Origin: Planctomycetota bacterium
Lineage (GTDB): Bacteria; Planctomycetota; J058
NCBI GenBank assembly: GCA_023954375.1
Contig: JAMLIC010000006.1
Coordinates: forward strand, 18,972-82,971
Length of the DNA: 64,000 nt
Direction of reading: 5' to 3'
Every line of letters begins with the position of its first letter. Position 1 is the first letter of the stretch. The position numbers and the translations under genes were made by a program. The notes under the pieces are model-generated. The model searched no databases, was not told where the DNA came from, and worked only from the letters and a program-made list of their open reading frames with translations. Shown here piece by piece: positions 7,350 to 55,924 of the stretch.

Positions 7350-9523
7350 GGCGCCGCCAGGGCGGCCTCGATGCGCGCCGCGAGGTGGCTGACGCGCTGC
7401 CGCGGCCGGTCGTTCTGCACGGCCATCTCCAGCGCGCGCCGCTGCCCGACGAGGATCGCCAGGCGCCGGGCGCGCGTGAGCGCGGTGTAGATCAGGTTGC
7501 GCTCGAGCATGACGAAGTGCTCGGTGAGCACGGGCACGACGACGGCCGGGTACTCCGACCCCTGCGCCTTGTGGATCGTGGCGCAGTAGGAGAGCGCCAG
7601 CCGCGCCGCCTCGCCGCGGGTGTAGCGCACCTCGCGGCCGTCGAAGGCCACGATCACCTCGCCCGTCTCCTCGCGGCGGACGACGCGGCCGATGTCGCCG
7701 TTGAACACGTCGTGCTCGTAGTCGTTGCGCAGCTGCATGACCTTGTCGCCCGCGTCGAGGCGCCCGAGGTCGGCCGGCTCCCCCTGGCGGCCGAGGAGCG
7801 CCGCGCGCAGGGCCGCGTTGAGGGCGTCGGTGCCGCAGGCGCCGCGGCGCATGGGCGAGAGCACCTGCACGGCCTCGAACGGGTCGAGGCCGAACTTGCC
7901 CGGGATCCGCTCGGTCACGAGCTTGACGATCGCCTTCTGCGCCTCGGCCGGGTCGTCGCGGGCGACGAAGAAGAAGTCGGTCTCCTCGGCCGGGTCGTGC
8001 TCGAGCGGCGGGACCTCGCCGCGGTTGATCGCGTGCGCGGCGCCGACGATCCGCGAGCGGGCGGCCTGGCGGAAGACCTCCGTGAGCCGCACGACGCGGG
8101 CGGCGCCGCTGGCGATCAGGTCCTTGAGCACCGACCCGGGCCCGACCGACGGGAGCTGGTCGACGTCGCCGGTGAGCACGAGCGTGGCCCCCGCCGGCAG
8201 GGCGCGGACGACGGCGTGGTAGAGGCGCACGTCGACCATGGAGGCCTCGTCGATCACCAGGAGGTCGACGTCGAGCGGGTCGTCCTGCCCGTGGACGAAG
8301 CCGCCCTCCTGCGGGTCCCAGCCGAGCAGCCGGTGGAGCGTCTGCGCCCGCGCGCCCGTGGCCTCCTCCATGCGCTTGGCGGCGCGCCCGGTCGGCGCGG
8401 CCAGGGCGAGCTTGGCCCGCTTGGCCTCGAGGACGCGCACGAGGGCGCGGAGGACCGTCGTCTTGCCCACGCCCGGACCGCCCGTGATCACCACGAGCGG
8501 CGCCTCGAGGCAGGCCTGCACGGCGTCGGCCTGCGCGTCGGTCAGGGCCAGGCCGTGCTCGCGCGCCAGCCACTCGACCGCCGCGCGCACGTCGCCCACG
8601 GGCGCGCGGCGGCGCTGCGGCTGGACGAGGCGCGCCGTGCGCTGCGCCGCGCCGCGCTCGGCGCGGAGGACCTGCGGCAGGTAGACCAGTTCGTCGCCCT
8701 CGGCGCCGGGCGGCCGGTCGAGCTCCAGGTCCAGCCCCTCGCGGGCCGCCCGCAGCCCCGCCTCGAGCGCCGCCGCGTCGAAGGCGTGCAGGAGCCGCCC
8801 GGCCTCCTCGAGGAGCGCCGGCGCCGCCACGGCCACGTGCCCCTGGCCGAGCGCCTCGTTCACGACGTGCAGGAGCCCCGCGCGCACGCGGCGCGGGTCG
8901 TCGGGCTTCATCCCGATCGCCCGCGCCAGGCGGTCGGCCGTGAGGAAGCCGACGCCGTCGACCTCGCGCGCGAGCTGGAAGGGGTCCTCCTCGAGCACGC
9001 CGCGCGTCGCCGCGCCGTACTTGGCGTGGATCTTCTCGGCCAGCGCCGGCCCGATCCCGTGCCCGCGCAGGAAGAGCATCACCTCGCGCGTCGAGCGCTG
9101 GGCCGCCCAGCCCGCCTCGATCTGCTTCAGGCGCTTCTTGCCGATCCCCTTCACCTCCCGCAGCCGGGCGGGGTCGTCGTCGAGGACGCGCAGGGTCTCC
9201 GCGCCGAAGCGCTCGACGATCCGCCGCGCCGTCTCGGGCCCCACGCCGTGGAGCGCGCCCGAGCCCAGGTAGCGCTCGATCGCCGCGACCGAGTCGGGCG
9301 GCGCGACCTTCGCTTCCCGGGCGCGGAACTGCCGGCCGAAGCGGGGGTCCATGACCCACTCGCCCTTGGCCTCGAGCACCTCGCCCGGGTGGGCCACGGG
9401 CAGGGGGCCGGTGACGCTCACGACGCCCGCGTCGCTCTCGAGCATGAGCACGGCGAACCCGCCGTCCTCACGGCGGAACACCTCGCCCCGCACGGTGCCC
9501 TGGAGCACGTCGTCCTGCGTCAT
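7346..9523 (-). CDS. recD2: RecD2-like ATP-dependent DNA helicase (RecD/TraA superfamily 1)
   Basis: 726 aa from ATG at 9523 (MTQDDVLQGTVRGEVF…). Walker A GGPGVGKTT. Helix-hairpin-helix-like N-terminal region. VLTGDVDQLPSVGPG (motif III) and C-terminal SF1 motifs. The longer 803-aa ORF extension upstream is Arg/Pro-rich and is not called. Confidence 0.85.
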   Translation of the reverse strand: MTQDDVLQGTVRGEVFRREDGGFAVLMLESDAGVVSVTGPLPVAHPGEVLEAKGEWVMDPRFGRQFRAREAKVAPPDSVAAIERYLGSGALHGVGPETARRIVERFGAETLRVLDDDPARLREVKGIGKKRLKQIEAGWAAQRSTREVMLFLRGHGIGPALAEKIHAKYGAATRGVLEEDPFQLAREVDGVGFLTADRLARAIGMKPDDPRRVRAGLLHVVNEALGQGHVAVAAPALLEEAGRLLHAFDAAALEAGLRAAREGLDLELDRPPGAEGDELVYLPQVLRAERGAAQRTARLVQPQRRRAPVGDVRAAVEWLAREHGLALTDAQADAVQACLEAPLVVITGGPGVGKTTVLRALVRVLEAKRAKLALAAPTGRAAKRMEEATGARAQTLHRLLGWDPQEGGFVHGQDDPLDVDLLVIDEASMVDVRLYHAVVRALPAGATLVLTGDVDQLPSVGPGSVLKDLIASGAARVVRLTEVFRQAARSRIVGAAHAINRGEVPPLEHDPAEETDFFFVARDDPAEAQKAIVKLVTERIPGKFGLDPFEAVQVLSPMRRGACGTDALNAALRAALLGRQGEPADLGRLDAGDKVMQLRNDYEHDVFNGDIGRVVRREETGEVIVAFDGREVRYTRGEAARLALSYCATIHKAQGSEYPAVVVPVLTEHFVMLERNLIYTALTRARRLAILVGQRRALEMAVQNDRPRQRVSHLAARIEAALAAP

Positions 9524-9534
9524 CGTCGACGAGT

Positions 9535-11307
9535 CTACCGCTCGCCGGCGACGGGCAGCGGCGCGGCCCACAGGCGGCCGGCGAAGCCGGCCGTGGCCGC
9601 CTCGACCGGCTGGCCGGCCCGGACCGCCTCGAACGCGGCCAGGGCGTCGTCGAGCGGGGGCAGGTCGTCGTCGAGCGGCCCCTCGCTCGTGAGGCGCACG
9701 AGCCGGCCGGGATGAGCGCGGGCGAGGTGGCAGGCCCAGCAGCCCGCCAGGAGGCACGGCTTCTGGAGCCCGGGGTCGATGAGGATCATGGACTCGAGCC
9801 GGCCCCGGTCGACGCGCAGGAGGAGGCGGTCGGAGCGCAGGCAGCGGATGGTCGTGCGGCCGTCGAGCGCGTCGCGGACGACGGGGTCGTCGCGGGTGCC
9901 GCCCCAGCCGGTGATGACGTCGAGGCCTTCGCTCACGACGACGACCTCGTCAGGCGGGGGGAGGACGGCGCCGTGCGGCAGGCCCTCGATCACCGTGCCG
10001 GGGCGAGCGACGAAGAACGGCTCGCCGAGGAGGCGGGTCGACCAGCGCACCTCGCCCGGCCCCACGTGGACCACGGTCGCGTGGCGGGGCACCTCGTGCT
10101 CACGCCCCCCTGCGCGCACCCGCCCGGCGCGCAGGTCGACCTCGATGCCGCCCGGCTCGCCGAAGGCGCGCGACAGCCAGCCGCCCGCCCGCAGCGAGAC
10201 GGGCTCCGCCGGCGGGTCGACGATGAGCAGGAGGCGCGGCGCGCGCCCGCGGTGCACCAGCCACGCCCGGAGGCCGTGGTGGTCCTCGAGCGTCCCCAGG
10301 CACCCCTCGCGCGTGAGGGTCCGCACCGGCCCCAGCCAGACGCCGGCGAGCGCGAGGGCCGCGGCGGCCGCCCGGAGCCGGCGGCGCCGCACCCGCGCCC
10401 ACGCGGGGACGCCCTCGCCCACGCGCTCGGCCGGCAGCCGCGCGCGGGCGACCTCGAGCAGCCGCCCCACGGCCTCGGCGCCCGGCCGCGCGACGCGGCG
10501 GCGGCCGGAGGCGAGCTCCAGGTAGAGCGCGCCGGCATCCCCGGACAGGCGGGCGACGTCGGACCAGGGCGCCCGGACGGCGCCCACCGCCAGGCCCGTC
10601 CGGCCGAAGTGGACCCGCAGGCGCCGCGGGAGCAGGAGGACGAGGCCGAGCAGGGCTCCGACGAAGAGGAGCGCGCCGCCCGCGACGGGGTCGCCCCCTC
10701 CCACATCGACCAGCACGAGGGAGACGCCGACGACGATGCCGAGCCCGCAGGCGACGACGAGGAGGAGGCCCGCCGTGAGGCCCCGCCCGCCGCTGGCCGT
10801 CCGCCGGTCGCCGTCGAGTCCCACCAGGACCGCGTCGAGGAGGGCGTGGATGCGGGCGCGCTCGGCCGCATCCCGGGCCGGCACCAGCGGCGGGAAGAGC
10901 AGGCGCGAGAGGCGGTCGTAGGTCGCCGGCGCGTCGAGGAGCACGCCCGCCGGCGAGTCCGCGCGCCCGACGATGTCGTCGACGGCGATGACCACCGCGC
11001 CGCGGCGGACGAGCCCGAGCAGCTCGATCACGACCTGGTCGCGGAGCACGGTCGCCCGCGAGAAGCGCCGCGAGGCCCAGGCGAGCAGCGTCACGCTCAC
11101 CCCCAGGGGGGCGAGCCACAGGGCGAGATCGACGAGCTCGGAGACGACCGCCGGCGACGTGAACGCCAGCGCCTCCGCCACCCGCCCCGCGGCCGCGCTC
11201 ACGGGGGAGGCCATGAGCGGCCCGAGGCACGAGCTCAGGAGGAGCGCCGCGAGGGCGAGCCCGGTCGCGCGGTCCAGCCGTCGCTCGAACACCACCCCCT
11301 CGGCCAT
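9535..11307 (-). CDS. hypothetical polytopic membrane protein, first gene of the membrane-protein/recD2/DUF2233 operon
   Basis: 590-aa ORF. Several hydrophobic helices in the N-terminal half, then a soluble region. Stop 11 nt upstream of the recD2 start on the same strand. Confidence 0.5.
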   Translation of the reverse strand: MAEGVVFERRLDRATGLALAALLLSSCLGPLMASPVSAAAGRVAEALAFTSPAVVSELVDLALWLAPLGVSVTLLAWASRRFSRATVLRDQVVIELLGLVRRGAVVIAVDDIVGRADSPAGVLLDAPATYDRLSRLLFPPLVPARDAAERARIHALLDAVLVGLDGDRRTASGGRGLTAGLLLVVACGLGIVVGVSLVLVDVGGGDPVAGGALLFVGALLGLVLLLPRRLRVHFGRTGLAVGAVRAPWSDVARLSGDAGALYLELASGRRRVARPGAEAVGRLLEVARARLPAERVGEGVPAWARVRRRRLRAAAAALALAGVWLGPVRTLTREGCLGTLEDHHGLRAWLVHRGRAPRLLLIVDPPAEPVSLRAGGWLSRAFGEPGGIEVDLRAGRVRAGGREHEVPRHATVVHVGPGEVRWSTRLLGEPFFVARPGTVIEGLPHGAVLPPPDEVVVVSEGLDVITGWGGTRDDPVVRDALDGRTTIRCLRSDRLLLRVDRGRLESMILIDPGLQKPCLLAGCWACHLARAHPGRLVRLTSEGPLDDDLPPLDDALAAFEAVRAGQPVEAATAGFAGRLWAAPLPVAGER

Positions 11308-11492
11308 GCACGGAGCGTAGCGGGCCCGGGCGCGCGCCGCCGGGTCGCCGCGGCGCCCTCGCCCGGCTGCGGCCTCAAGGCGATCGGTCCGGCGCGGCTC
11401 CCGGCCGCTCGCAGGCTGCGTGCGCGCCCGGACGGGATGGCGGAGGATAGGGGGCGCGCCGCGGGCGCGCCGGGCGCGGGCGAGGGGAGCGG

Positions 11493-14236
11493 ATGGCGCG
11501 GCGGGTCGGACCCTACGAGCTCGAGCGCCGCCTGGGCCGGGGCGGCATGGGCGAGGTGTGGGCGGCCGCCCACGTCGAGACCGGCGCGCGGCACGCCCTC
11601 AAGCTGATCGCCCTGTCCGACGCCGACGCGGCGCTGCGCGCCGCGCGCGAGGCCGAGGCGCTGGCCCGCCTCGACGGCCATCCCGGGGTCCTGCGCGTGC
11701 ACAGCGCCTTCGTCGACGGGCCGCGCGTGGTGCTGGCGATGGAGCTGGTCGAGGGGGGCGAGGACCTGCAGGCCCGTCTCGCGCGCGAGGGGCCGCTCGC
11801 GCCGGAGGCGGCCGCGCGCCTGGTGCGCGACGTGGCGCTGGCGGTGCAGCACGCCCACGACCGCGGCGTCCTCCACCGCGACCTCAAGCCGGGCAACGTG
11901 CTCCTCGACCCCGCCGGCGCGGCGCGCCTGATCGACCTCGGGTTGGCGCGGCTGCTCGACGGGCGCTCGCTGACGCGGACGGGCGACGTCCTGGGGACCC
12001 CGGCCTTCATGGCCCCCGAGCAGGCGCTCGGGCGCCCCTGCAATGCGCGGACCGACGTGTTCGGCCTCGGGGCGGTCCTCTTCGCCGCGCTCACGGGGCG
12101 CGCGCCGCGGCAGGGCGCGCGCACGCCGCTCGAGGCCCTGGCCCGGGCGGCCGAGGAGCCGCCGCCGCGGGCGGACGTCGTCCGACCGGGGGTGCCGCCC
12201 GCCCTGGCGGAGGTCGTCGCGCGGGCCACGGCCCTCGACCCGGCGCGCCGGCACGCCTCGGCCGGCGACCTGGCGCGTGACCTGGACGGCTGGCTCCGCG
12301 CGCCCTCGCTCAGCGGCCGGCGCCTGCGGCCCGGGACGGGGCTCGTCGTCCTCGCCGCGGCCGCGGTGACCCTCGCCGGCGCCGCCGCAGGGCTCGCCGT
12401 CCGACGGGTGGCCGGCGCGCGGGACGCCGCCGCGCGGGACGTCGCCGCCGCGGCCGCCTTCGAGCGCGATGTCGTCGCGCCCTGGGAGCTGGGCCTCCGC
12501 GGCCCGCCGCCCGCCCCGGCGGCGCTCCCCGCCCACGTGGCGGCCGCCGCGCGCGGCGCCGCCGCGCTGACGGCCGGAGAGGGGGCGTCGACGCGCGCGC
12601 TGGCGGGCCGGCTGCGGGCGCTCGCGCCGCTCGTCGGGGGCGCGGCGCCGGACGGCCCGGTCGACCCGCCGCTCGCGGCCCTCGTCGAGGCCGTCCTGGC
12701 CGCGGAGCGGGAGGGGGACGCGACCGGCGCGCGGGCCGCGGCGGTCCTGGCGGCGGGCGCCGCCGGCCCCGACGCGGGCGGCGGCGCTGCGCGTGGCGCT
12801 CGCCGCGCTCCGGCGCGCCGGCGACGCGCCGGGGCGGCGGGCGGCGGGCGCCGCGCTGACCCGGCTCCTCGACTCCCTCCCGTCCGGCGACCCGCTCCGC
12901 CCGGAGCGTCGTGGCGGCCGCGGCCGCCGACGGCTGCCAGCTCGCGGGGTCCATCCGCGACAACATCCGGATCGGTCGTCCCGACGCCACCGACGACGAG
13001 GTCGCCGCCGCCCTGGCCCTCGATGCCGTGGCCGCCGCCCTCGGGGACGTGGCCGTCGAGGCGGTCGCGACGGGCCGCGAGGCGGCGCTCACGACGAACG
13101 CGGCGGTCGCGGCGGGGCGGCTGGTCGCCGCCGCGGGCCGCGCCGGCGCGCCCGACGAGGTGCTGGAGCTGGCGCGCGCGCTCGCCGCCGCTGGCCTGGG
13201 TCCCCTCGGCCGCCCCCCGCCCGCCCTGCAGGAGGCCGCGGAGGCCGCCGCCGCCGCGCTGACGCCGGTCGAGGTCCCGAGGCTGCTCAGGCTCGATGTG
13301 GCGTGGAGCCTCGTCCTCGGCGGGGCGCCGCTCGCGGCGCTCGCGCCCCACACCGGCGCTTCGGTCCCGCCCCAGGCGGACCCGACGGTCGACACGCTCA
13401 GGCACCTCGCCCTCACGCGTCGTATGGGCCTCGCCGACCTGCCCGTCGTCGGCGTCAGCACGCTGGAGCGGAGCGCGGCGATGCCGGCGACCCTGCGCCG
13501 ACCGCCCGTGCGCAGCCGGCTCCTGGCGAGCGTCATCCTGACCCAGCACGCGTGGGCCCTCGCGGACGACGAGGCCCTGGACCTCGCCCGGGTCGCGCTC
13601 GGGGAGGCGGCGGGCGCCCACGACGACCTGAGCGCGAGCGACGACGGGGCCGCGCGCCTCGGCGCCGACGGCGAGGTCTCCGCCCGCGTCCTCCAGGCCC
13701 TCGCCCGGCGCGCGCCGCGCGCGCAGGGCCCGCCGGACCTCGCCCGGGCCGTGCTCGCGCGCTGGGAGCGTCCCGATGCAGGGCTCGCGGCGCCGGTCGT
13801 GGGGGCCGCCCTGAACCTCCTGCGGGACCGGGGAGAGGACGTGTGCGCGCGTCGCGCGCGCCTCATCGCCCGGCTGCACGCGGAGGAGGGCGCAAGACCG
13901 CCGGGGGTCCGTGACGACCTCGCGGCCAGCCAGGAGGCCGAGGCGGTGGAGGACCTGCGGGGCGCGGGGCGGCTGGCGGAGGCGATCGCGGCCGCGGAGG
14001 CCCTCCGTCCGAACGCGGCGCCGGAGCCGACCGCGCGCGCGCACGTGGCGGCGGCCGGCGCCTGCCTCGACCAGGGCGGCGCGGACGCGGTCGCGCGGGC
14101 GGAGGGGTGGCTCGAGCGGGCCCGGGCGGTCGGGCCGAGCGAGGGGCGCGGTCCGGAGGAGAACGAGGTGTGGCTCGAGGACGTGACGGGTGGGGCCTAC
14201 AAGCGCCTCGAGCGCCGGCTCGAGGAGGCGCGCTGA
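11493..14236 (+). pseudogene. Ser/Thr protein kinase, paralog A, with C-terminal helical-repeat domain; reading frame disrupted (~12785 and ~12895), so either a pseudogene or sequence errors
   Basis: N-terminal Hanks kinase in frame 0 (11493..~12780: GRGGMGEVW, HRDLKPGNVLL, DLGLA, APE), then a TM helix. Protein similarity to paralog B continues in frame +1 (12793..) and then frame +2 (12911..14236). No single ORF spans the gene. The C-terminal 440 aa align to the paralog B C-terminus. Confidence 0.55.
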
Positions 14237-14275
14237 CCTCGGGAGGTGACCCTCCGCCTCGATGAGGCCGCGCGG

Positions 14276-17206
14276 TCAGCCCCTCCGCCGTCGCCCCTTG
14301 CCGCTCTTCGCCGGCCCACCCGCCCCCGCGAGCGCCGGCTCGGGCGGCGACCAGGCCTCCTCGGGCAGCGGCTCCAGCCCCAGCAGCGGGGCCAGGAACC
14401 GCCCGGTGTGCGAGCCCGGCGTGCGGGCCACGTCCTCGGGCGTGCCGGCGACGAGGAGCTTGCCGCCGCGCTCGCCGCCCTCGGGGCCGAGGTCCACGAC
14501 CCAGTCGGCGGTCTTCACGATGTCCAGGTTGTGCTCGATCACGACGACGGTGTTGCCGGCGTCGACGAGGCGCGAGAGCACGCCCAGGAGCTTCTTGATG
14601 TCGTCGAAGTGGAGCCCGGTCGACGGCTCGTCGAGCACGTAGAGCGTGCGCCCCGTCGAGCGCTTGCCCAGCTCGCGCGCGAGCTTCACCCGCTGCGCCT
14701 CGCCGCCCGAGAGCGTCGGGCTGGGCTGGCCGAGCGGCATGTAGCCCAGGCCCACGTCGACGAGCGTCTCCAGCAGCCGCGCGATCTTCGGGTGGTTCCG
14801 GAACAGCTCGAGCCCCTCGGCCACCGTCATGTCGAGGACCTGCGCGATCGACTTGCCGCGGTAGGTCACGCGCAGGGTGGCGTCGTTGAAGCGCTTGCCG
14901 TCGCACTCCGAGCACGTCACGTAGACGTCGGCCAGGAAGTGCATCTCGATCTTCTTCACCCCCGAGCCCTCGCAGCCCTCGCAGCGGCCGCCCTTCACGT
15001 TGAAGGAGAAGCGGCCCGGCTTGAAGCCGAACGCGAGCGCCTCCGGCAGCCCGGCGTAGAAGTCGCGGACCTCGTCGAAGACCTTCACGTAGGTGGCCGG
15101 GTTGCTGCGCGGCGTGCGCCCGATCGGCTGCTGGTCGATCGCGATCACGCGGTCGATGTGCTCGACGCCGTCGAGCCGGTCGTGCGCGGCCACGTGGACG
15201 GCCTTGTCGGTGAGCTGGCGCTCGAGGCCGGGCAGGAGGATCTGGTTGACGAGCGTCGACTTCCCCGCGCCCGAGCAGCCCGTGACGCACAGGAACACGC
15301 CCAGCGGGAAGGCCGCGTCGACGCCCTGCAGGTTGTTGGCGCGCGCGCCGACGATCCGGAGCTCGCGCCGGGGGTCGACCGGGCGGCGCCGCGGCGGGGT
15401 CGCGATCTCCAGGTCGCCCGACAGGTACCTGCCCGTGAGCGAGCGCGGGTCGGCCTGGAGCTGCGTCGGCGTGCCGGCGGCCATGACCTGCCCGCCGTCG
15501 CGGCCGGCGCCGGGGCCGAAGTCGATGATCCAGTCCGCGCGCTCGATCGTCTCGCGGTCGTGCTCGACGACGATGATCGTGTTGCCCTTGTCGCGCAGGT
15601 GCTCGAGCGTGTTGATCAGCCGCGACGCGTCGCGCGCGTGGAGCCCGATCGACGGCTCGTCGAGCACGTAGACGACGCCCGACAGCTCCGAGCCGATCTG
15701 CGAGGCGAGCTGGATGCGCTGCGACTCGCCGCCCGAGAGCGACGGCCCCGGCCGCGAGAGCGACAGGTAGTCGAGGCCCACGTCCTCGAGGAAGCGCAGG
15801 CGCGCGCGGATCTCCTTGATGAGCTCGGCCGCGATCTGCCGCTGCTCCTTGCCCAGCCCGTCGTGCAGCCCCTCGACCCAGCGAGACGCGTCGCGCACGC
15901 ACATCTCGCAGATCGCGCCCATGGTCTGCCCGCCCAGGCGCACGGCCGCGCTCTCCGGCCGAAGGCGGCTGCCGCCGCAGGCCCCGCAGGGGCGGTAGCT
16001 GTGGAACGAGGCGTAGTACTTCTGCGCGTCCTCGGACTTGGTCTCGAGCAGCCGGCGCTTGAGCTGCGCCAGCACGCCCTCCCACTTCATGCGGTAGGGG
16101 CGCGAGCCGTTCCAGTGGACGCTGATCGACTGCCTGCCCGCGCCGTGGAGGATCACCTCCTGCGCGCGCGCGGGCAGCTTGCGCCACGGCGCGTCGAGGT
16201 CGATCGAGAACTCCTTCGCGATCGCCGCCACGAGCTTCCCGGTCCAGGTGCCGTCGGCCTCGAGCGACTCCCGCGGCCACACGGCCACGGCGCCCTCGCG
16301 GATCGACTTGCTCGCGTCGGGCACGACGAGCGCCGGGTCCATGTCGAGGCTGTGGCCCAGGCCGTTGCACGAGACGCACATGCCCTGCGGCGAGTTGAAC
16401 GAGAACGACTGCGGCGTCAGGTCGGGGAACGACAGCCCGCAGGCGTCGCACGCCATGCGCTCGGAGTGGATCGCCTCGGTCTTCTGGTCGACGTCGACGA
16501 GGATCAGCCGCCCCTGGCCCAGGCGCAGGGCGGTCTCGACGGAGTCGACGATGCGGTTGCGCAGGCTGTCCTTGACGACGAGGCGGTCGACGACCGCCTC
16601 GAGCGTGTGCTTCTCCTTCTTGTTCAGCGCCGCGAGGCCCTCGAGCTCCTTCACCTCGCCGTCGACGCGCACGCGCACGATGCCCTCGCGGCGCAGGACG
16701 GCCAGCTCCTCCCTGTGCTCGCCCTTCCTGTTCTCGATGCGCGGGGCGAGGACGATGAGCTTCTTGCCGGCCGGCAGCGAGGCGATGCGCCGGCTGATCT
16801 GCTGCGCGCTCTGCGACTCGACGAGCTTGCCGCAGGTCGGGCAGTGCTGGACGCCGACGCGCGCGAAGAGCACGCGCAGGTAGTCGTGGATCTCGGTGAT
16901 CGTGCCCACGGTCGAGCGCGGGTTGACCGACGCCGCCTTCTGCTCGACGGCGATGCTCGGCGAGAGCCCCTGGATCTTGTCGTACTTCGGCTTCTCCTTC
17001 TGGCCCAGGAACTGCCGGGCGTAAGCGGAGAGGCTCTCGACGAAGCGGCGGCGGCCCTCGGCGTAGATCGTGTCGATCGCGAGCGTGGACTTGCCCGAGC
17101 CCGACGGCCCGGTGAAGACCACCAGCTTCTTCTTGGGGATCGAGACGTCGATCCCCTTGAGGTTGTGCTCCCTCGCCCCGAGGACGAGGATCTCCTGCGG
17201 CTCCAC
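14276..17206 (-). CDS. uvrA: excinuclease ABC subunit A (UvrA)
   Basis: 976-aa ORF. Two ABC ATPase modules (GPSGSGKSTL, GCSGAGKSTL; LSGGESQR and LSGGEAQR signatures; DEPSIGLH, DEPSTGLH). Zinc-finger cysteines CPTCGK, CDACG, CEGCEG, CSECDG. Convergent with kinase A (39-bp gap containing a GGAGG-TGAC-CCTCC palindrome). Divergent from kinase B (101 bp). Confidence 0.95.
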   Translation of the reverse strand: MEPQEILVLGAREHNLKGIDVSIPKKKLVVFTGPSGSGKSTLAIDTIYAEGRRRFVESLSAYARQFLGQKEKPKYDKIQGLSPSIAVEQKAASVNPRSTVGTITEIHDYLRVLFARVGVQHCPTCGKLVESQSAQQISRRIASLPAGKKLIVLAPRIENRKGEHREELAVLRREGIVRVRVDGEVKELEGLAALNKKEKHTLEAVVDRLVVKDSLRNRIVDSVETALRLGQGRLILVDVDQKTEAIHSERMACDACGLSFPDLTPQSFSFNSPQGMCVSCNGLGHSLDMDPALVVPDASKSIREGAVAVWPRESLEADGTWTGKLVAAIAKEFSIDLDAPWRKLPARAQEVILHGAGRQSISVHWNGSRPYRMKWEGVLAQLKRRLLETKSEDAQKYYASFHSYRPCGACGGSRLRPESAAVRLGGQTMGAICEMCVRDASRWVEGLHDGLGKEQRQIAAELIKEIRARLRFLEDVGLDYLSLSRPGPSLSGGESQRIQLASQIGSELSGVVYVLDEPSIGLHARDASRLINTLEHLRDKGNTIIVVEHDRETIERADWIIDFGPGAGRDGGQVMAAGTPTQLQADPRSLTGRYLSGDLEIATPPRRRPVDPRRELRIVGARANNLQGVDAAFPLGVFLCVTGCSGAGKSTLVNQILLPGLERQLTDKAVHVAAHDRLDGVEHIDRVIAIDQQPIGRTPRSNPATYVKVFDEVRDFYAGLPEALAFGFKPGRFSFNVKGGRCEGCEGSGVKKIEMHFLADVYVTCSECDGKRFNDATLRVTYRGKSIAQVLDMTVAEGLELFRNHPKIARLLETLVDVGLGYMPLGQPSPTLSGGEAQRVKLARELGKRSTGRTLYVLDEPSTGLHFDDIKKLLGVLSRLVDAGNTVVVIEHNLDIVKTADWVVDLGPEGGERGGKLLVAGTPEDVARTPGSHTGRFLAPLLGLEPLPEEAWSPPEPALAGAGGPAKSGKGRRRRG

Positions 17207-17307
17207 GCCGACCCCCTGCTGTGCGGCTCGATCTCGGCGGCGCGGCCGGCCGAGATGGCGGAAGATAGCACGGGCCGTCGCGAGCGCGACGGGCGCGGAC
17301 GGGGCGG

Positions 17308-20070
17308 ATGGCGCGGCGGGTCGGACCGTACGAGCTCGAGCGCCGCCTGGGCAAGGGCGGCATGGGCGAGGTGTGGGCGGCCGCCCACGTCGAGACCGGC
17401 GCGCGGCACGCCCTCAAGCTGATCGCCCTCACCGACGCCGCCGCGGCGCTGCGCGCCGCGCGCGAGGCCGAGGCGCTGGCGCGCCTCGACGGCCACCCGG
17501 GGGTCCTACGCGTGTTCAGCGCCTTCGTCGACGGGCCGCGCATGGTCCTGGCGATGGAGCTGGTCGAGGGCGGCGAGGACCTCGAGGCGCGCCTGGCGCG
17601 CGAGGGCCCGCTCGAGCCGGCGGCCGCCGCGCGCCTCGTCCGCGACGTGGCGCTCGCGGTGCAGCACGCGCACGACCGCGGCGTCCTCCATCGCGACCTC
17701 AAGCCGGGCAACGTGCTCCTCGACGCCGCCGGCGCGCCGCGCCTCGTCGACCTGGGCCTGGCGCGGCTGCTCGACGGGCGCTCGCTGACGCGGACCGGCG
17801 ACGTCCTGGGCACGCCCGCGTTCCTCGCGCCCGAGCAGGCGCTCGGGCGCGCGAGCGACGCGCGGACCGACGTCTTCGGGCTCGGGGCGCTCCTGTTCGC
17901 CGCGCTCACCGGGCGCGCGCCGCGGCAGGGCGCGCTGCTCGAGGCGCTCGCCCGCGCGGCCGACCAGCCGCTGCCCCGGACGGACGTCGTCCGACCGGGG
18001 CGTGCCCGCGGCGCTCGCCGACGTCGTCGCCCGGGCGACGGCGCTCGAGCCGGCGCGCACGCCACGGCCGGCGACCTGGCGCGCGACCTCGAGGCCTGGC
18101 TGGCCGGCGCCGGCCTGCCCGGGCGGGCGGTGGCGCGGCGCGGCCCTCGGGGTCGGGACGCTGCTCGCGCTGGCCGCGGCCGGCGGCGCGGCCTGGATCG
18201 CCGTCGCCCGCCGCGAGGCGGCGCGCGGCCGCCGCCGCCGCGACCTTCGAGCTCGAGGTCGTGGCGCCGTGGGCCCGGGCTCGGCGAGCCGGCCGCCCCG
18301 AGGCGCTCGCCGCGCACACGGCGGCGGCGGCGCGCGCGGCCGCCGCCCTCGCCGGTGAGGAGCGCGCCAGGCCCGCGCCGTCGCCGCGCGCCTGGCCGCG
18401 CTCGGGCCGCTTCGTCGGCGCGGCCGCGCCGGCCGTGGCGCCCGACCCGGCGGTCGGCGCGCTGGTCGAGGCGGTCCTCGCCGCGGAGCGGGGCGGCGAC
18501 CCCGACGGCGCCCACGCGGGCCGGGTCGCCGCCGCGGTCGAGGCGGGCGCGCCGCCCGCGCTCGCCCGGGCGGCCGCGGCGCGCGTGGACTTCGCGGCGC
18601 TGCGCGCGGCTCCCGACCGCGCGGCGCTCGCGCGCGGCCGCGGCGCTGACCCGCCACCTCCGCGCCCTCGCGGCCGACGGGCGCCCCCTCCCGGGCCTCG
18701 AGGCGGCGGCCACCCGGGAGCTGCTCGCGGCCGCCCGGGCCGACGTCGCCCGCCTGGTCGGCCTCCAGCCGCACGCCCGCGCGAGCGGGGCCGACGCCGA
18801 GGTCGCCGCGGCGCAGGCGCTCGACGCCCTCGCCGGCGCGCTCGGGCCGGCCGCCGTCGCGGCGGTGGGCTCGACCCGGCTGGCCGCGCTCGCGGACCAC
18901 GCGGAGGAGGCCGCGCGGCTGCTGGTCGAGCGGACGCGCCGCGGCGGGCGGCACGAGGCGCTGGAGCACACGCGCGCGCTCTCGGCCGCGGCCCTCGGCC
19001 CGACCGCTCGCCCGCCGCCAGCCATGCGCAAGGCCCTGGAGCGCGCCGCCGCCTCGCTGGCAGGGGCCGGGCCCGACCGGCGCCCGACCGAGCTGGCGGC
19101 GCTGCTGACGCTCGACGCCGCCTGGTGCCTGGTGCTCGGCGGCGAGCGGCTGGAGGCGCTCGAGCACCACTTCGAGGCGGGCGGCTGGCGCCTCCCGGGT
19201 CAGGACGACGAGGAGCTCGAGGCCCTCCGCCACCTCTCCCTGGCCCACCGGTTCGGCCACACCGACCTGGCGCTCGTCGACTGGGAGGCGTCGCCCGCGC
19301 TGCGCCGGTCGGCGGCCATGCCGGCCTCCATGCGACGCCCGCCGCTCCGCAGCCGGCTCGTGGCGGTCGCGCTCGTCCTCAACCCGCCGGGCGACCTGAG
19401 CGACGCCGAGCTGGACCTGGCGCGCGTCGCCCTGGGGCTGGCGCCCGGGGCCCGCGACGACTTCCTCGTGACGGTCAACGAGGCGACGCGGCTCGCCGCC
19501 GACGGCGAGCTCTGCGCGCACGTCCTGCGCGCCCTCCGGGCGCGCGCGGCGGGGTCCTCGGCGGTCGCGGAGGCCCTGCCCGACCTGGCCCGGGCGGTCC
19601 TCGCCCGCTGGGAGGAGGGCCGGGACGCCGGCCTGGCGGCGCCGGTCGTCGGGTTCGCCCTGAACCTCCTGCGCGAGCGCGGCGAGGACGTGGCCGCGCG
19701 CCGCGAGCGGCTGATCGCGCGGCTCGTCGCCGAGGAGAGCGAGCGGCCGTCGGGGCTCCGCCAGGACATGGCGACGATCCAGCGGGCCGAGCGTGTCGAC
19801 GACCTGCGCCGCGCCGGCCCTGGCAGCGAGGCGCTCGAGCGGCCCGACGCGCTGCCCGAGGACATGGCCGCGCGCGCGTTCGTGGCGGCCGGGCACGCGT
19901 CCCTGAACCTCGGCGGCCGGGGCGCGGCCGACCGGGCGCGCGCGTGGGCGGAGCGCGCCGAGGAGCTGGCGCGGGCGGTCGGCGATGGGGACTGGACGGT
20001 GTGGCTCGAGCACGCGTCCAGGCGGGCGTACGGCCGCCTCACGCGTCGGCTGAAGGAGGCGGCGCGCTGA
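17308..20070 (+). CDS. Ser/Thr protein kinase, paralog B, with C-terminal helical-repeat domain (single 920-aa ORF, but the central ~650 nt appears frame-shifted relative to the homologous segments)
   Basis: Kinase domain ~90% nucleotide-identical to paralog A. Segments homologous to A's TM helix and linker are encoded in the other two frames between ~18000 and ~18650 (ORFs 18002..18358 and part of 17070..20102). The called frame there is Arg/Pro/Ser-rich and lacks the TM helix. The C-terminal 470 aa are in frame and homologous to A. Confidence 0.6.
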   Translation: MARRVGPYELERRLGKGGMGEVWAAAHVETGARHALKLIALTDAAAALRAAREAEALARLDGHPGVLRVFSAFVDGPRMVLAMELVEGGEDLEARLAREGPLEPAAAARLVRDVALAVQHAHDRGVLHRDLKPGNVLLDAAGAPRLVDLGLARLLDGRSLTRTGDVLGTPAFLAPEQALGRASDARTDVFGLGALLFAALTGRAPRQGALLEALARAADQPLPRTDVVRPGRARGARRRRRPGDGARAGAHATAGDLARDLEAWLAGAGLPGRAVARRGPRGRDAARAGRGRRRGLDRRRPPRGGARPPPPRPSSSRSWRRGPGLGEPAAPRRSPRTRRRRRARPPPSPVRSAPGPRRRRAPGRARAASSARPRRPWRPTRRSARWSRRSSPRSGAATPTAPTRAGSPPRSRRARRPRSPGRPRRAWTSRRCARLPTARRSRAAAALTRHLRALAADGRPLPGLEAAATRELLAAARADVARLVGLQPHARASGADAEVAAAQALDALAGALGPAAVAAVGSTRLAALADHAEEAARLLVERTRRGGRHEALEHTRALSAAALGPTARPPPAMRKALERAAASLAGAGPDRRPTELAALLTLDAAWCLVLGGERLEALEHHFEAGGWRLPGQDDEELEALRHLSLAHRFGHTDLALVDWEASPALRRSAAMPASMRRPPLRSRLVAVALVLNPPGDLSDAELDLARVALGLAPGARDDFLVTVNEATRLAADGELCAHVLRALRARAAGSSAVAEALPDLARAVLARWEEGRDAGLAAPVVGFALNLLRERGEDVAARRERLIARLVAEESERPSGLRQDMATIQRAERVDDLRRAGPGSEALERPDALPEDMAARAFVAAGHASLNLGGRGAADRARAWAERAEELARAVGDGDWTVWLEHASRRAYGRLTRRLKEAAR

Positions 20071-20806
20071 CCGGGCGGCGCGCCGGGCGCGGCGCCCGGT
20101 AGCGCCGGTGCGCCTTCGCGACCAGCCGGCGGTCGGCGCCGAGGAGCGCGCGCGCGATCGCCGGGCGCAGCCCGGCCGCCTCGAGGTGGCGCAGGACCGC
20201 CTCGCGCTCGCGGACCTTGGCGGCGAGCTGCGTCAGGCGCAGCGTCTCGGGCGACGGCGCCAGCGACGTGAAGCCGGCCCGGTCGAGGCGCGCCCCCCAG
20301 CCGTCCAGCCACGGCTCGAGGCCAAGGACGAGCGCCTGGTCGAGGTCCTCGCGGTCGCGCAGGTCGGCGCGCCCGCGGCCGCGGACGGCCTCCTGGGCGA
20401 CCATGGCCGCGACGGTGGTGATGGCCTTCGCCAGGGCGTCGACCTCCACCAGCGCCTTGATCGGGTCCTGGATCGTGTAGACGACGTTCACGTCGAGGTC
20501 GTAGACGAACCCGTCGGCGGTGGTCGCCCGCTGCTTCGGCACGTCGATCGTGTGGCTGCGGGTGTGGACCTTCTTCACCTGGTGGATGTAGGGGATCAGC
20601 GGGTGGAACCCCGGCTCCAGCACGCGCCGCACGCGCCCCAGCCGGAAGAGCACGCCCCGGTGGCCGGAGTCGATCACCACGCCCATGAGGCCGACGAAGG
20701 CGGCGACGATGATGATCGCCTCCTTCGGGTTCTCCTTCGCCCACGCCCACAGGACGCCCCCCACGGCGCGGCCGGTGTCGAGGGCCGACTGGAGCCACGC
20801 GTCCAC
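20039..20806 (-). CDS. SPFH/band-7 domain protein (HflK/HflC-like), membrane-anchored
   Basis: N-terminal TM helix (AIIIVAAFVGLMGVVI), then a band-7 core (…VYDLDVNVVYTIQDP…). ATG overlaps the stop of the upstream SPFH gene (ATGA). 3' end overlaps kinase B convergently by ~30 nt. Confidence 0.7.
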   Translation of the reverse strand: MDAWLQSALDTGRAVGGVLWAWAKENPKEAIIIVAAFVGLMGVVIDSGHRGVLFRLGRVRRVLEPGFHPLIPYIHQVKKVHTRSHTIDVPKQRATTADGFVYDLDVNVVYTIQDPIKALVEVDALAKAITTVAAMVAQEAVRGRGRADLRDREDLDQALVLGLEPWLDGWGARLDRAGFTSLAPSPETLRLTQLAAKVREREAVLRHLEAAGLRPAIARALLGADRRLVAKAHRRYRAPRPARRPVSAPPPSADA

Positions 20807-21504
20807 TAGGCCACCGGCGCCAGCTCGGCGTCACCGACCTCGGGCGGCGCCGACGGCGGGGGCGGGGCGGGGCGCTCGCGCGGCTCGCGCTCGCCCTCGC
20901 GCACGGCCATGACCGCGCCCGAGATGAGCGCCACGGCGGCGTCCTCCGACAGCCCCTCGCCGCGCGTGAAGCGGTGGTAGAGGCCCAGCTTCTCCTCGGC
21001 CAGGAGGCGGAGCTGCGTGATCTCGAGCGTCGGCGGCGTGGGCGAGAGGTTCGAGAAGCCGAACTCGCGGATGCGGATCCCCCACTGCTCCTCGACGGGC
21101 TTCAGCTCCTCCTTCACGGCCGCGATCATGGCCGGGAGGTCGCGGATCGACTCGCGCGTCTGCGCCTTGACCACGCGCTGCACGGCCAGCGTCAGGCGGT
21201 TCTTCAGGCCCTCGACCAGGTCGTCGACCTCGATGAGCGCCTTGCGCAGGTCGACCACCTGGTAGACGACCTTCGCGCCGACGTCGTAGACCAGGTCGTC
21301 CTGGAGCTGGATCACCTGCGGCTCGAGGTCGAGCGTGGTGTGCTTCGTGTCCTGCACCCGGAAGCGCTGGACGACCGGCCACTTGAAGTGGATCCCCGGG
21401 CCCACGACCAGGCGGGCCCGCCCGAGCGTGTACTTGAGGGCGTGCTGGCCGTCGTAGACGACCACGAAGATGCCCGTGAACACCTGGAGGATCTCGAGGA
21501 GCAT
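20806..21504 (-). CDS. SPFH/band-7 domain protein (HflK/HflC-like), membrane-anchored
   Basis: Start chosen at the internal ATG (21504; MLLEILQVFTGIFVVVYDG…), which gives an N-terminal TM helix directly followed by the band-7 core. The longer ORF starting at 21594 is also possible. Pro-rich C-terminal tail. Confidence 0.65.
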   Translation of the reverse strand: MLLEILQVFTGIFVVVYDGQHALKYTLGRARLVVGPGIHFKWPVVQRFRVQDTKHTTLDLEPQVIQLQDDLVYDVGAKVVYQVVDLRKALIEVDDLVEGLKNRLTLAVQRVVKAQTRESIRDLPAMIAAVKEELKPVEEQWGIRIREFGFSNLSPTPPTLEITQLRLLAEEKLGLYHRFTRGEGLSEDAAVALISGAVMAVREGEREPRERPAPPPPSAPPEVGDAELAPVA

Positions 21505-21592
21505 GGGGGCGCCATTCTGCCGCACGGATGGCGCCCCTGCACACCGGAGGTGTGTGGCCGGCATCGCGCCCTGGCGTGGCATAGTCCTGCCC

Positions 21593-22003
21593 ATGGCGCG
21601 GCGTGACAGGCTCGGGCTCGGGGTGCTGGTGGCCGCGGCGCTGGGCGGGGCGGCCGTCGGCGGCGACGCCGCGCTCTCGCTGGCGCTCCAGGGCGGGCGC
21701 TGGCGCAGGGGGCTCGCCGGGGTCGACCTCGTGTCGCTCGCCGACGAGGAGATGGCGCTCGCGCGCGCGCTGATCCCGCCCGACGCCGCGGTCGGCTACC
21801 TGGGCAGCCCCGACGTGGCCGCCCCCGGCGACCACGCCCGCTTCTCGCTCCTGCGCTACACGCTCGCCCCGCGGCAGGTGCTGCTGGACGCGGCCGACGC
21901 GCCCTACGTGATCCTCGCGGGCCCCGCCCCGCCGGGGCTGGGCGCCCGCCACCGGCCCCTGGCGCGGCTCGGCCCGTCCACCCTCCTCCTGGGCCCGAAG
22001 TGA
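21593..22003 (+). CDS. hypothetical secreted protein (136 aa)
   Basis: ATG at 21593 followed by a signal-peptide-like LGLGVLVAAALGGAAVGG. Stop overlaps the GTG start of the next gene (GTGA). Confidence 0.4.
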   Translation: MARRDRLGLGVLVAAALGGAAVGGDAALSLALQGGRWRRGLAGVDLVSLADEEMALARALIPPDAAVGYLGSPDVAAPGDHARFSLLRYTLAPRQVLLDAADAPYVILAGPAPPGLGARHRPLARLGPSTLLLGPK

Positions 22004-23367
22004 CCGCGCTCGCGTGGGTGGTCGCGCTGGGGCTGCCCGTGGCGCTCGCGTGGGCGCTCGTCCGCTGCCTCGACCCGGGCTGCCCGCGCTGGCTGGCGGT
22101 GGGCCTCGCGGCGGCCCTCGGGCCCGCCGCCGGCTCGCTCCTGCACGTCGGCTGGCTGGCGGCGTTCGGCGCCCCGGGCGCCGGGGCCCTGGCGGTCGAG
22201 GTGGCGCTCCTCGGCGGCGCGCTGGCCCTCGCCCGGCGGCGGAGCGCGCCCGGCGGCGACGACGACCAGGGCGCCCGGCCGGGCTGGAGCGCGCTCGACC
22301 GCGGCCTCGCGGCCGTCGTCGCGGCCGCGGCGCTCATGGCCGTCGTCCACCTCGCCGCCCTGACCGCCGCGGCGCCGCACGGCAACCGCGACGCCTGGGC
22401 GGTGTGGAACCAGCGCGCGCGGGCGCTCGCCCGCTCGGACGGCGACTGGGCGCGGGTGCTCGTCGGCCCGCCGCGCCCCGACCTGCACCTCGACTACCCG
22501 CTGGCCGTGCCCGGCGCCGTGGCGCGGGTGTGGTGGCTCACGGGCGAGTCGACGCTCGCCCCGGCGCTGCTCGCGCTGCAGGCCGCCCTGGCGGGCGCGG
22601 CGGTCGTGGGGCTCGGCCTGGCGAGCGCTCGCCCGCGCGCCGTCGGGCTGCTCGGGGCGGCGCTGGTGCTCTCCGCGCCCCTGTGGGCGCGCGAGGCGGC
22701 GAGCCAGTGCGCCGACGTGCCCCTCGCCGCGCTGCTCGGGGCGACCGCGGCGCTCCTGGTGCGGGTCGAGCGCGCGCCGCGGCCCGGGGCGTTCGCCGCG
22801 CTCGGAGCGGCGGCGGGCCTGGCCGCCTGGACGAAGAACGAGGGGCTCGTGGCGCTCGCCGGCGTCGTGCCCGCCGCCGCGCTGCTCGCCGGCGCGGGGG
22901 GGCGCGCGCGGGCCGCCGGGCTCGCGCTCCTGGGCGCCGCCCCGGCGCTCCTCGCCCTGGGGCTGCACAAGGCGGTGGCCCCGACCAACGACCTCGTGGG
23001 CGCGCAGGGGGCCGACACGCCGGCGCGCCTCCTCGACCCGGGGCGCTGGGGGGCCGTCGTGACCGGCCTCGGCGGCGCCGCGCTGCACCTGTGGCCCGCG
23101 GCGGCGCTCGTCGGGTGGGCGGCCCTGGTCGGCCTGCGCCCGCCGCCGCGCCCGCGCGCGGCGCGGGCGCTCGGCGCGCTCCTCGTCCTGCAGGTCGCGG
23201 CCTACGTCCTCGCCTACGTCACCACGCCCTGGGACCTGGCGTGGCACCTCCAGACCTCGCGCGCGCGCGTGCTGCTGCACCTCTGGCCGGCGGGCGTCCT
23301 CCTGGCGCTGCTCGCCGCCGGGGCGGCCGAGCGCGATGCGCCGCCCTCGCCCGCGGAGGCCCGGTAG
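22000..23367 (+). CDS. polytopic integral membrane protein, possibly a GT-C-fold (ArnT/PMT-like) glycosyltransferase
   Basis: 455 aa, about 10-12 hydrophobic helices with an Ala/Leu/Gly-rich composition. The GT-C assignment is only a guess from topology and size. Confidence 0.45.
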   Translation: MTALAWVVALGLPVALAWALVRCLDPGCPRWLAVGLAAALGPAAGSLLHVGWLAAFGAPGAGALAVEVALLGGALALARRRSAPGGDDDQGARPGWSALDRGLAAVVAAAALMAVVHLAALTAAAPHGNRDAWAVWNQRARALARSDGDWARVLVGPPRPDLHLDYPLAVPGAVARVWWLTGESTLAPALLALQAALAGAAVVGLGLASARPRAVGLLGAALVLSAPLWAREAASQCADVPLAALLGATAALLVRVERAPRPGAFAALGAAAGLAAWTKNEGLVALAGVVPAAALLAGAGGRARAAGLALLGAAPALLALGLHKAVAPTNDLVGAQGADTPARLLDPGRWGAVVTGLGGAALHLWPAAALVGWAALVGLRPPPRPRAARALGALLVLQVAAYVLAYVTTPWDLAWHLQTSRARVLLHLWPAGVLLALLAAGAAERDAPPSPAEAR

Positions 23368-23449: not shown

Positions 23450-24829
23450 TTGTCACGCGTCACCCGTCCACGCCGCCGCGCGCTCGCCTTGGCGCTCGTC
23501 GCCCTCGGAGGGGTCGGGCTCTCCCTCCGGGCCGTCCCGACGGCGGCGGCTGCGCCGGCCCCGCGCGGGGCCGTGGTCGTCCTCGAGGTCGAGGGGGTGA
23601 TCAACCCGATCACCGCCCGCTACCTCGAGCGCGAGCTCCGGGCGGCCGGCGACGCGGCGCTGGTCGTGGTGCGCCTCGACACGCCCGGCGGGCTCGACAC
23701 GGCCATGCGCGACATGATCCAGGCGATCCTCGGCGCCCCGGCGCCGGTGGCCGTGCACGTGGCCCCCCCGGGCGCGCGCGCCGCGTCGGCGGGCATGTTC
23801 GTGACGCTCGCCGGCCACGTGGCGGCCATGGCCCCCGAGACGGCGATCGGCGCGGCGCACCCGGTCGCGCTCGGCGGCGCCGCCGACGACGTCGCCATGA
23901 GCAAGGTCGTCAACGACGCGGCGGCCATGGCGCGCGCCCTCGCCGAGGCGCGCGGCCGCGACGCCGGGTGGGCGGAGCAGGCCGTGCGCGAGAGCCTGTC
24001 GCTCACCGCCGGCGAGGCGGCCGCCCGCGGGGTGGTCGACCTCGTGGCGCGCGACCTCGACGAGCTCCTCGACGCGGTCCACGGGCGCGTCGTCGAGACC
24101 GCCGCCGGCGCGCGCCGGATCCAGGTCGTGCGGGCGGAGGTGGTCGAGCGGCCCATGCCGCTGGTCGAGCGGGCGCTCCAGCGCCTCGCGCACCCCGACC
24201 TCGCGTTCCTGCTGCTCACGCTCGGCGCGCTCGGCCTCCTGGCCGAGCTGTTCAACCCGGGCGCGCTCGTTCCGGGCGTCGCCGGCGCGATCGCCCTCCT
24301 GGTCGGGTTCGTCGCCCTCGGCAACCTTCCGGTCGGCGGCGCGGGCCTCCTCCTCCTCGGCCTGGGCCTCCTCCTGATCGCGGGCGAGGCGCTGACGCCC
24401 GGGGTGGGCGTCCTGGCGGTCGGCGGCGGGGTCGCCTTCGTCCTCGGCGCGCTCCTCCTCTACCGGCCGCTCGGGCCGGTCTCGCCGGCGCTCCCCGACC
24501 TGCGCCCGAGCCCGTGGCTCGTCGGCCTCGGCGCCGGCGGGGTCGGCGCGTTCACGCTCCTCGTCGTCCGCGCCGCCCTGCGCTCGCGCCACGAGCCGGT
24601 GGCCACGGGGGTCGAGGCGCTGCTCGGGCGCCGCGGCGTGGCCACCACGGACCTCGCGCCGCACGGGACCGTGCGCATCGACCTCGAGGCCTGGCTGGGC
24701 GAGGCGGCGGGCGGGGGGACGATCTACGCTGGCGAGGACGTGGTCGTCGTCGCCGTGGAGGGGGTCACGGTCAAGGTGCAGCGGGCGCCGGCGCGCGTCG
24801 CGCTGGGCGGGGGGCCTCGGAGCGGATGA
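23450..24829 (+). CDS. NfeD family membrane-bound ClpP-class serine protease
   Basis: Signal/anchor, then a ClpP-like fold (…VRLDTPGG…SAGMFV…), then multiple TM helices and a C-terminal OB-like beta domain (…TVRIDLEAW…VVVVAVEG…). Stop overlaps the ATG of the stomatin-like gene (ATGATGA). Confidence 0.8.
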   Translation: MSRVTRPRRRALALALVALGGVGLSLRAVPTAAAAPAPRGAVVVLEVEGVINPITARYLERELRAAGDAALVVVRLDTPGGLDTAMRDMIQAILGAPAPVAVHVAPPGARAASAGMFVTLAGHVAAMAPETAIGAAHPVALGGAADDVAMSKVVNDAAAMARALAEARGRDAGWAEQAVRESLSLTAGEAAARGVVDLVARDLDELLDAVHGRVVETAAGARRIQVVRAEVVERPMPLVERALQRLAHPDLAFLLLTLGALGLLAELFNPGALVPGVAGAIALLVGFVALGNLPVGGAGLLLLGLGLLLIAGEALTPGVGVLAVGGGVAFVLGALLLYRPLGPVSPALPDLRPSPWLVGLGAGGVGAFTLLVVRAALRSRHEPVATGVEALLGRRGVATTDLAPHGTVRIDLEAWLGEAAGGGTIYAGEDVVVVAVEGVTVKVQRAPARVALGGGPRSG

Positions 24830-55786: not shown

Positions 55787-55805
55787 GCGCTCTCAGCCAT
55801 CGATT

Positions 55806-55896: not shown

Positions 55897-55924
55897 CATG
55901 TGAGCCCACACGGTCGGCCCTCGA

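Follow-up and report, generated by a model that had tools for sequence, protein, structure and literature searches.

Directly repeated kinase genes on either side of uvrA in a planctomycete: probable decay of an old, lineage-specific paralog pair

Why does the excision repair gene uvrA lie between two long, directly repeated serine/threonine (Ser/Thr) kinase genes, and are those genes still functional? We addressed this question in 64,000 nucleotides (nt) of contig JAMLIC010000006.1 (assembly GCA_023954375.1, positions 18,972 to 82,971), hereafter the window, which derives from a planctomycete metagenome-assembled genome (MAG) and has a guanine-plus-cytosine (GC) content of about 77%. The repeat copies are numbered 1 and 2 in 5'-to-3' order on the forward strand of the window. 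We favour, with a probability of roughly 60%, an old lineage-specific paralog pair in decay through ordinary accessory-gene turnover. The locus would hold an old pair of single-pass receptor-type Hanks kinase paralogs of narrow lineage, each combining a kinase domain and one membrane helix with an outer region, all-alpha and about 600 amino acids (aa) long, that belongs to no known family. The copies would occupy, in direct orientation, two variable intergenic slots flanking the conserved uvrA. Copy 2, divergent from uvrA, would be the resident copy, and gene conversion with the copy 2 locus as donor would have replaced the 5' end of copy 1, over a tract that begins some 70 nt before the gene and reaches some 700 nt into it. 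Frameshifting indels acquired later by both copies would most likely have turned them into pseudogenes, or left them crippled at best; in close relatives one or both copies would have been lost or never been present, and uvrA is kept by all.

The repeat was observed directly. Self-BLASTN of the window aligned 11422-14238 with 17240-20072 on the same strand as a single high-scoring segment pair (73.4% identity, 2933 columns, 65 gap openings, E=0), with uvrA between them on the opposite strand, bearing out the direct duplication around uvrA proposed in the initial annotation. The same search found no other repeat of comparable size in the window.

11422..14238, + strand: repeat copy 1, the entire kinase paralog 1 preceded by about 70 nt (self-BLASTN, segment identities)
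14276..17206, - strand: uvrA, intact, 976 aa, GTG start (Pfam UvrA_inter and UvrA_DNA-bind; identical to NCBI MCO5166398.1)
17240..20072, + strand: repeat copy 2, kinase paralog 2 and its leader, divergent from uvrA (self-BLASTN)

The collinear similarity reaches past the conserved kinase motifs into the non-kinase two thirds of the gene, so that the outcome named in the initial annotation as its refutation, a lack of extended identity outside the catalytic motifs, did not occur. Identity falls along the length of the repeat as follows.

57 nt upstream, 11436-11492 against 17255-17307: 74.6% (44/59)
Kinase domain, 11493-12191 against 17308-18000: 90.1% (630/699)
Middle part, 12192-12919 against 18001-18702: 69.7%
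C-terminal part, 12920-14236 against 18703-20070: 67.3% in nucleotides, 56% in protein

Per 100 nt, identity was 84-97% until about 12160 and 57-79% beyond, and the longest exact runs shared by the copies were 75, 39, 37 and 33 nt. The initial annotation had assigned about 90% nucleotide identity to both the 57 nt upstream and the kinase domain; this holds for the kinase domain and not for the upstream sequence, and the opening 700 nt of its segments are 88.7% identical. The protein-level homology that it described for the C-terminal domains was confirmed by the 56% identity above.

Both copies matched Pfam Pkinase (PF00069), copy 1 with E=2.6e-42 (145.5 bits) and copy 2 with E=7.3e-40 (137.4 bits; gathering cut-off 31.7), and the catalytic motifs G(R/K)GGMG, HALK, HRDLKPGN, DLG and APE lie at matching positions in the two. 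Only copy 1 carries the full kinase fold in one frame (PK_Tyr_Ser-Thr profile positions 2-248 of 258). In copy 2 the match ends at profile position 208 because of a frame excursion at 18001-18058, and in residue numbers the Pfam kinase match reaches only 207-209, whereas that of copy 1 extends to 253. After the kinase domain of copy 1, hydropathy analysis located one strongly hydrophobic 19-mer, VVLAAAAVTLAGAAAGLAV, at about 12345-12401, and the remainder of the gene encodes about 600 Ala/Leu/Arg-rich residues. The predicted product is a receptor-type Hanks Ser/Thr kinase that crosses the membrane once and carries an orphan helical domain. It resembles PknB-type receptor kinases and the expanded kinase sets of Planctomycetota and Myxococcota in its N-terminal Pkinase domain, single membrane helix and large C-terminal putative sensor region, but differs in that the C-terminal domain has no Pfam family and both genes are frameshifted. 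The nearest kinase domains were found in Planctomycetota MAGs at 43-57% identity.

The C-terminal domain appears to be a true orphan. A Pfam search of its approximately 480 aa returned no match (no PASTA, TPR, FGE-sulfatase or other domain). When a two-sequence profile was searched against 1.84 billion representative proteins, only two relatives outside the contig were recovered, both of them fragments (P0002, 221 aa, and P0003, 138 aa); the further matches were the copy 1 fragment itself and weak TPR/ARM-type noise. Two metagenome scans with this domain gave pattern matches only and no true relative. An AlphaFold2 model of the copy 2 domain, built from a two-sequence alignment, was all-helical but too weak for a fold search (mean predicted local distance difference test score, pLDDT, 56.8; predicted template modelling score, pTM, 0.38).

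We then traced the reading frames of both copies by the codon-position GC signal, which is very sharp at such GC content, and by all-frame translation against the paralog. Cross-frame matching was done by hand and with local alignments; tblastn and tblastx on these low-complexity frames gave mostly noise. Copy 1 contains two frame changes, at about 12757-12761 and about 12905-12906, and is split into open reading frames (ORFs) 11493-13262 and 12911-14236. Copy 2 contains seven, all within 18001-18637. At every one of them homology to the paralog carries on in the shifted frame.

11493..12757, + strand: copy 1 ancestral frame, part 1, with kinase domain (GRGGMG, HALK, HRDLKPGN, DLG, APE), hydrophobic helix and start of the outer domain (Pfam, motifs, hydropathy, frame plot)
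12757..12906, + strand: copy 1 segment coding in the +1 frame (GC frame plot, similarity to copy 2 and to the unbroken frame of a related assembly, L081)
12905..14236, + strand: copy 1 C-terminal all-alpha orphan domain, predicted, in the third frame (no Pfam match)
17308..18000, + strand: copy 2, catalytic core of the kinase, in frame and complete in its catalytic motifs (Pfam Pkinase, motifs)
18001..18637, + strand: copy 2 frameshift cluster, at 18001 (+1 C), 18056-18058 (-4), ~18127, ~18225-18229, 18361 (-1), 18411 (+1 T) and 18616 (-2)
18634..20070, + strand: copy 2 C-terminal orphan domain, again in the kinase-domain frame (ortholog in L081)

The copy 2 ORF, 17308-20070, is open over 920 aa, with about 640 nt (18001-18634) outside the ancestral frame; across them an Arg-rich stretch takes the place of the last kinase helices, the membrane helix and the linker, the first excursion alone swapping out 18-19 residues of the kinase C-lobe. 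The two genes are thus paralogous kinase genes, as originally described, but neither is intact. Programmed frameshifting or transcriptional slippage was ruled out, the nine sites being of differing types and without slippery motifs. A practical point follows for annotation: very high-GC ORFs that seem intact may conceal several frame changes.

Next, the kinase slots were compared in close relatives, which were reached through a UvrA protein search and its cluster members. A genome-contig scan with UvrA returned relatives of at most 61% identity among the matches listed, of no use for synteny. Five loci were compared.

L086 (GCA_026184275.1), uvrA 95% identical in nucleotides: copy 2 slot with the start of copy 2, divergent from uvrA; copy 1 slot a 411-nt spacer
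L084 (GCA_019636275.1), uvrA 94.7% identical in nucleotides: copy 2 slot without a kinase, 715 nt with an unrelated short ORF; copy 1 slot without a kinase, 484 nt with an unrelated short ORF
L082 (JGI 3300048837), uvrA 89% identical in nucleotides: copy 2 slot without a kinase; copy 1 slot without a kinase, holding a 396-aa gene with a weak Sel1 match
L085 (GCA_024711045.1), UvrA at least 90% identical in amino acids (same 90% cluster): neither slot with a kinase
L083 (JGI 3300023218), UvrA 77% identical in amino acids: neither slot with a kinase of this type

All five loci keep uvrA. The comparison of one kinase against two, which the initial annotation had called for, gave copy 2 only in L086 and neither copy in L084, L082 and L085. 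In L084 homology to the window stops almost exactly at the repeat ends. Synonymous divergence of uvrA was 0.073 between L086 and L084 and 0.12 between either and the window, and of these two relatives only L086 has copy 2. Since L086 and L084 are closest to each other yet differ in copy 2, the kinases have been gained or lost more than once. This distribution indicates that both slots beside uvrA are variable and that the kinases are dispensable. A kinase-bearing mobile element was also considered and rejected, the repeat ends being gene ends, with no terminal repeats or transposase seen.

Both uvrA flanks look like hot spots for gene replacement in this lineage. Each of the L084 slots (reverse complement 9511-9995 and 13017-13732) holds one unrelated short ORF; CxxC Cys pairs in both products hint at zinc ribbons, and the product of 193 aa contains a hydrophobic stretch as well. 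In L082 the spacer between Band_7 and uvrA (9566-10000) contains about 60 G followed by about 60 C, within an inverted repeat TGTAGGGGC / GCCCCTACA, the signature of either an extreme hairpin or a poly-G artefact of sequencing or assembly; the run makes this locus weaker evidence for the absence of copy 2. A palindromic element of about 97 nt, 84% self-complementary, lies at 55803-55899 of the window. A 79% similar copy of it is found in L086 (reverse complement 483-619) directly downstream of uvrA, where copy 1 sits in the window, and the L084 spacer downstream of uvrA has a hairpin at the same place. The element resembles a dispersed family of hairpins of the repetitive extragenic palindromic (REP) or terminator kind.

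The abrupt change in identity along the repeat was examined at synonymous sites, where such a 5' gradient between paralogs can be tested. Proportions of synonymous (pS) and non-synonymous (pN) differences between copy 1 and copy 2 were obtained by the Nei-Gojobori method.

First 40 codons: pS 0.046, pN 0.017
Kinase domain: pS 0.205, pN 0.047
C-terminal domain: pS 0.373, pN 0.293

Synonymous divergence is thus uneven, the kinase and C-terminal domains differing at Fisher p=3e-5. Among positions with identical amino acids, the codons were also identical for 82% in the kinase domain and 65% in the C-terminal domain (Fisher p=6e-5). Because G and C fill nearly all third positions here, the third-position identity of 63% in the C-terminal domain is near saturation. 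Judged by these values, the 3' halves are far older than the splits from the relatives without copies (uvrA pS 0.12) and the 5' tract is much younger. A recent in-situ duplication was ruled out, as the C-terminal pS of 0.37 far exceeds that same divergence.

The flank of copy 1 points to where the 5' tract came from. Its upstream sequence, 11422-11452, matches uvrA-upstream sequence that is also found in the kinase-less L084 and L082.

11440..11450, no strand: GCGGAGGATAG, a diverged copy of the uvrA-upstream motif, before copy 1 (five-way upstream alignment)
17258..17271, no strand: GCGGAAGATAGCAC, the uvrA-upstream motif, 52-65 nt before the uvrA start (conserved across four genomes, kinase-bearing and kinase-less alike)

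On the uvrA strand GCGGAAGATAGCAC contains TATCTT, a TAnnnT -10-like hexamer, and could be a candidate promoter or regulator site of uvrA; a scan for consensus promoters and terminators flagged nothing at this position. Because the flank of copy 1 carries DNA native to the intergenic region between copy 2 and uvrA, we infer that the transfer ran from copy 2 to copy 1. These observations support past gene conversion in that direction, and overwriting of the copy 1 5' end would explain a 90% identical 5' part beside a 3' part of about 67%. Over the first 90 codons, copy 1 and copy 2 of the window differ by pS 0.114, and copy 2 of the window and copy 2 of L086 by pS 0.109. The last homogenisation would therefore be about as old as the split from L086. 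The initial annotation had suggested ongoing gene conversion: homogenisation of the 5' part is upheld by the pS values, but nothing in this comparison with the ortholog indicates that it is still under way. Conversion between dispersed paralogs such as the tuf genes and rRNA operons leaves the same mosaic of a near-identical tract (here 5') beside a much older part (here 3'), and the likeness extends to a drop in divergence at synonymous sites that reaches non-coding flank. The difference is that tuf and rRNA conversion involves housekeeping genes held identical by selection, and the genes here would be dispensable, decaying accessory genes.

Whether the genes are truly decaying depends on whether the indels are real mutations. 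A 5.1-kb Logan assembly (L081, from SRR12908314) is about 90% identical to window 18316-23330, with the gene order copy 2, Band_7, Band_7, and encodes the 221-aa ortholog fragment P0002. Its equivalent of window 18316-18640 reads in one continuous frame, and the window indels at 18361, 18411 and 18616 are therefore derived and private to the window. L081 has a +1 of its own, at L081:1080, which breaks the C-terminal domain where the window is intact. The alignment of the two shows no indels in the two adjoining Band_7 genes. Among the indels in the window are deletions of 4 nt and 2 nt and insertions of one C or T away from long homopolymers, a spectrum that differs from the usual homopolymer pattern of sequencing error. 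No frame change was found in uvrA or in the window's 13.2-kb ORF (about 16 kb of coding DNA checked). The NCBI protein MCO5166397.1 (hypothetical, M9894_08535) corresponds to the last 312 aa of copy 1 and is consecutive in accession with UvrA, MCO5166398.1. The 589-aa and 920-aa kinase ORFs were not in the protein collection that holds the NCBI proteins of this contig, where the best match to the kinase part was 57% identical. As the kinase ORFs lack entries that their same-contig neighbours have, the annotation pipeline seems to have treated them as pseudogenes.

Selection was gauged from the ratio pN/pS. Between the window and L081 it was 0.66-0.77 for the C-terminal domain and 0.15-0.23 for the Band_7 genes, and for uvrA it was 0.14-0.16 between the window and L084 or L086. 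The C-terminal values fit relaxed constraint but are not decisive.

Several points weigh against decay. Each indel rests on consensus sequence, and the nine frame changes are all confined to the window's most GC-rich DNA, the kind in which coverage is usually poorest and the consensus least reliable; the two frame-changed stretches contain 9 of the 12 100-nt bins with GC of at least 0.88. That the ORFs are missing from a protein collection speaks only indirectly for a /pseudo flag. Nor is a high pN/pS particular to the kinases, as the intact 590-aa orphan gene next to them reaches 0.74, and the kinase domain seems still constrained, at 0.2-0.29. The shifts in copy 2 sum to zero, include two tight compensating pairs (18001/18056 and 18361/18411) and leave the 920-aa ORF open, which could mean that the downstream frame is still under selection, although net zero arises by chance about one time in three and at such GC content few stop codons occur in any frame.

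The strongest competing explanation takes both kinase genes to be intact and functional, a receptor-kinase pair around uvrA, with the frameshifts as assembly or polishing errors in DNA of 84-91% GC. We consider it unlikely, though it retains an appreciable share of our belief. The MAG source and the placing of all frame changes in the most GC-rich bins are what it would predict, and it accounts for the purifying selection on the kinase domain. Codon-position GC and similarity to the paralog are moreover perfectly kept in the shifted frames, and the shifts must be very recent or unreal. It does not readily explain why an independent assembly, L081, is also frameshifted, at another site and with clean neighbouring genes, nor the 2-nt and 4-nt deletions and the insertions outside homopolymers, nor about 16 kb of other coding DNA without a frame change. 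The relatives lacking one or both copies show, in addition, that the genes can be dispensed with. We thus infer that the indels are real and that the genes are probably non-functional. Decay of an old pair is of small significance beyond this genome; it offers a clean example of accessory receptor-kinase turnover around a conserved repair gene in high-GC Planctomycetota.

In a less probable version, one that we regard as doubtful, the indels are real and copy 2 remains functional through compensated frameshifts. It would encode a 920-aa kinase in which an Arg-rich disordered stretch replaces the helix and linker and the C-terminal domain has moved to the cytoplasm; copy 1 would supply a membrane kinase cut short, perhaps together with its C-terminal part as a protein of its own, and the pair would be diverging in function. 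The open 920-aa ORF, in which the kinase core and C-terminal domain share a frame, accords with this, as do the two local pairs of compensating indels, the intact catalytic motifs of both copies and the 312-aa protein that NCBI calls from the 3' part of copy 1. However, 18-19 residues of the kinase C-lobe are replaced and the Pfam match ends at 207-209 instead of 253. At 85% GC, chance alone is expected to leave frames open, the net-zero shift has a probability of about 1/3, the C-terminal pN/pS of 0.66-0.77 indicates weak constraint, and the L081 ortholog breaks the C-terminal domain itself. It is very improbable that the GC-extreme linker is a true indel hot spot, toggling or remodelling the proteins by (compensating) frameshifts as contingency variation and, together with the repeats, also yielding uvrA-deleted, repair-deficient cells in natural populations.

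The initial annotation had proposed a mutator switch, in which the direct repeats serve as substrate for deletion of uvrA in part of the population and so create a repair-deficient mutator subpopulation. In principle, RecA-type recombination between the copies could delete uvrA and leave a hybrid kinase; the interval removed would be 5.8 kb. RecA-type recombination in Escherichia coli needs about 25-30 nt of identity, and a divergence of 10% cuts it by orders of magnitude. The direct orientation, the 90% identity of the 5' 700 nt, exact shared runs that all exceed the E. coli need and the support for past recombination (conversion) between the copies are in its favour. Nevertheless, the proposal was not borne out and is the least credible that we considered. 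No recombinant junction or uvrA-less relative was found among the five related loci, all of which keep uvrA, and the two metagenome scans with the C-terminal domain, and even the best tract is 10% diverged. The arrangement is not conserved either, L086 having one copy and L084 none. Given the geometry of direct repeats, the deletion is irreversible and is therefore no switch. Nor would an inverted duplication be expected, as the initial annotation had it: direct repeats delete or tandemly duplicate the intervening DNA, without inversion. Its description of uvrA as essential likewise needs correction, since the gene is needed for nucleotide excision repair and not for viability. Loss of uvrA chiefly causes sensitivity to UV and adduct damage without a strong mutator state, and the gene is not a classical strong mutator locus.

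Repeats that flank or interrupt a DNA-repair gene have parallels in the excision and integration of SpyCIM1 in the mutL operon of Streptococcus pyogenes and in other repeat-mediated changes of mismatch repair. The known mutator switches affect mismatch repair and are either reversible or site-specific. By contrast, the present case would involve a one-way deletion, uvrA, repeats at least 10% diverged and no recombinant seen. Were the indels real and uvrA-deleted junctions to exist, the locus would become a natural example of excision repair lost through repeats; none of the present results suggests as much.

Several other features of the window were recorded. Two further Ser/Thr kinase genes lie within the 64 kb, at 382-2334 (- strand) and 55925-57292 (- strand), the latter a fusion of a response-regulator receiver domain and a kinase domain. 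A single ORF of 4396 aa at 40087-53277 (- strand) is TPR-rich, with matches to many TPR Pfam families, and keeps one coding frame over about 13-14 kb. The 590-aa orphan gene at 9535-11307 (- strand), which adjoins a RecD2-type helicase gene (7346-9757), encodes a predicted membrane protein without a Pfam match and appears to be fast-evolving, with L082 orthologs 36% identical and its pN/pS of 0.74 measured against L084. Downstream of copy 2 are two tandem Band_7/SPFH genes (20039-20806 and 20806-21594, both - strand) with an NfeD gene close by (23450-24829, + strand). Copy 2 and the first Band_7 gene converge, sharing 32 nt at their 3' ends.

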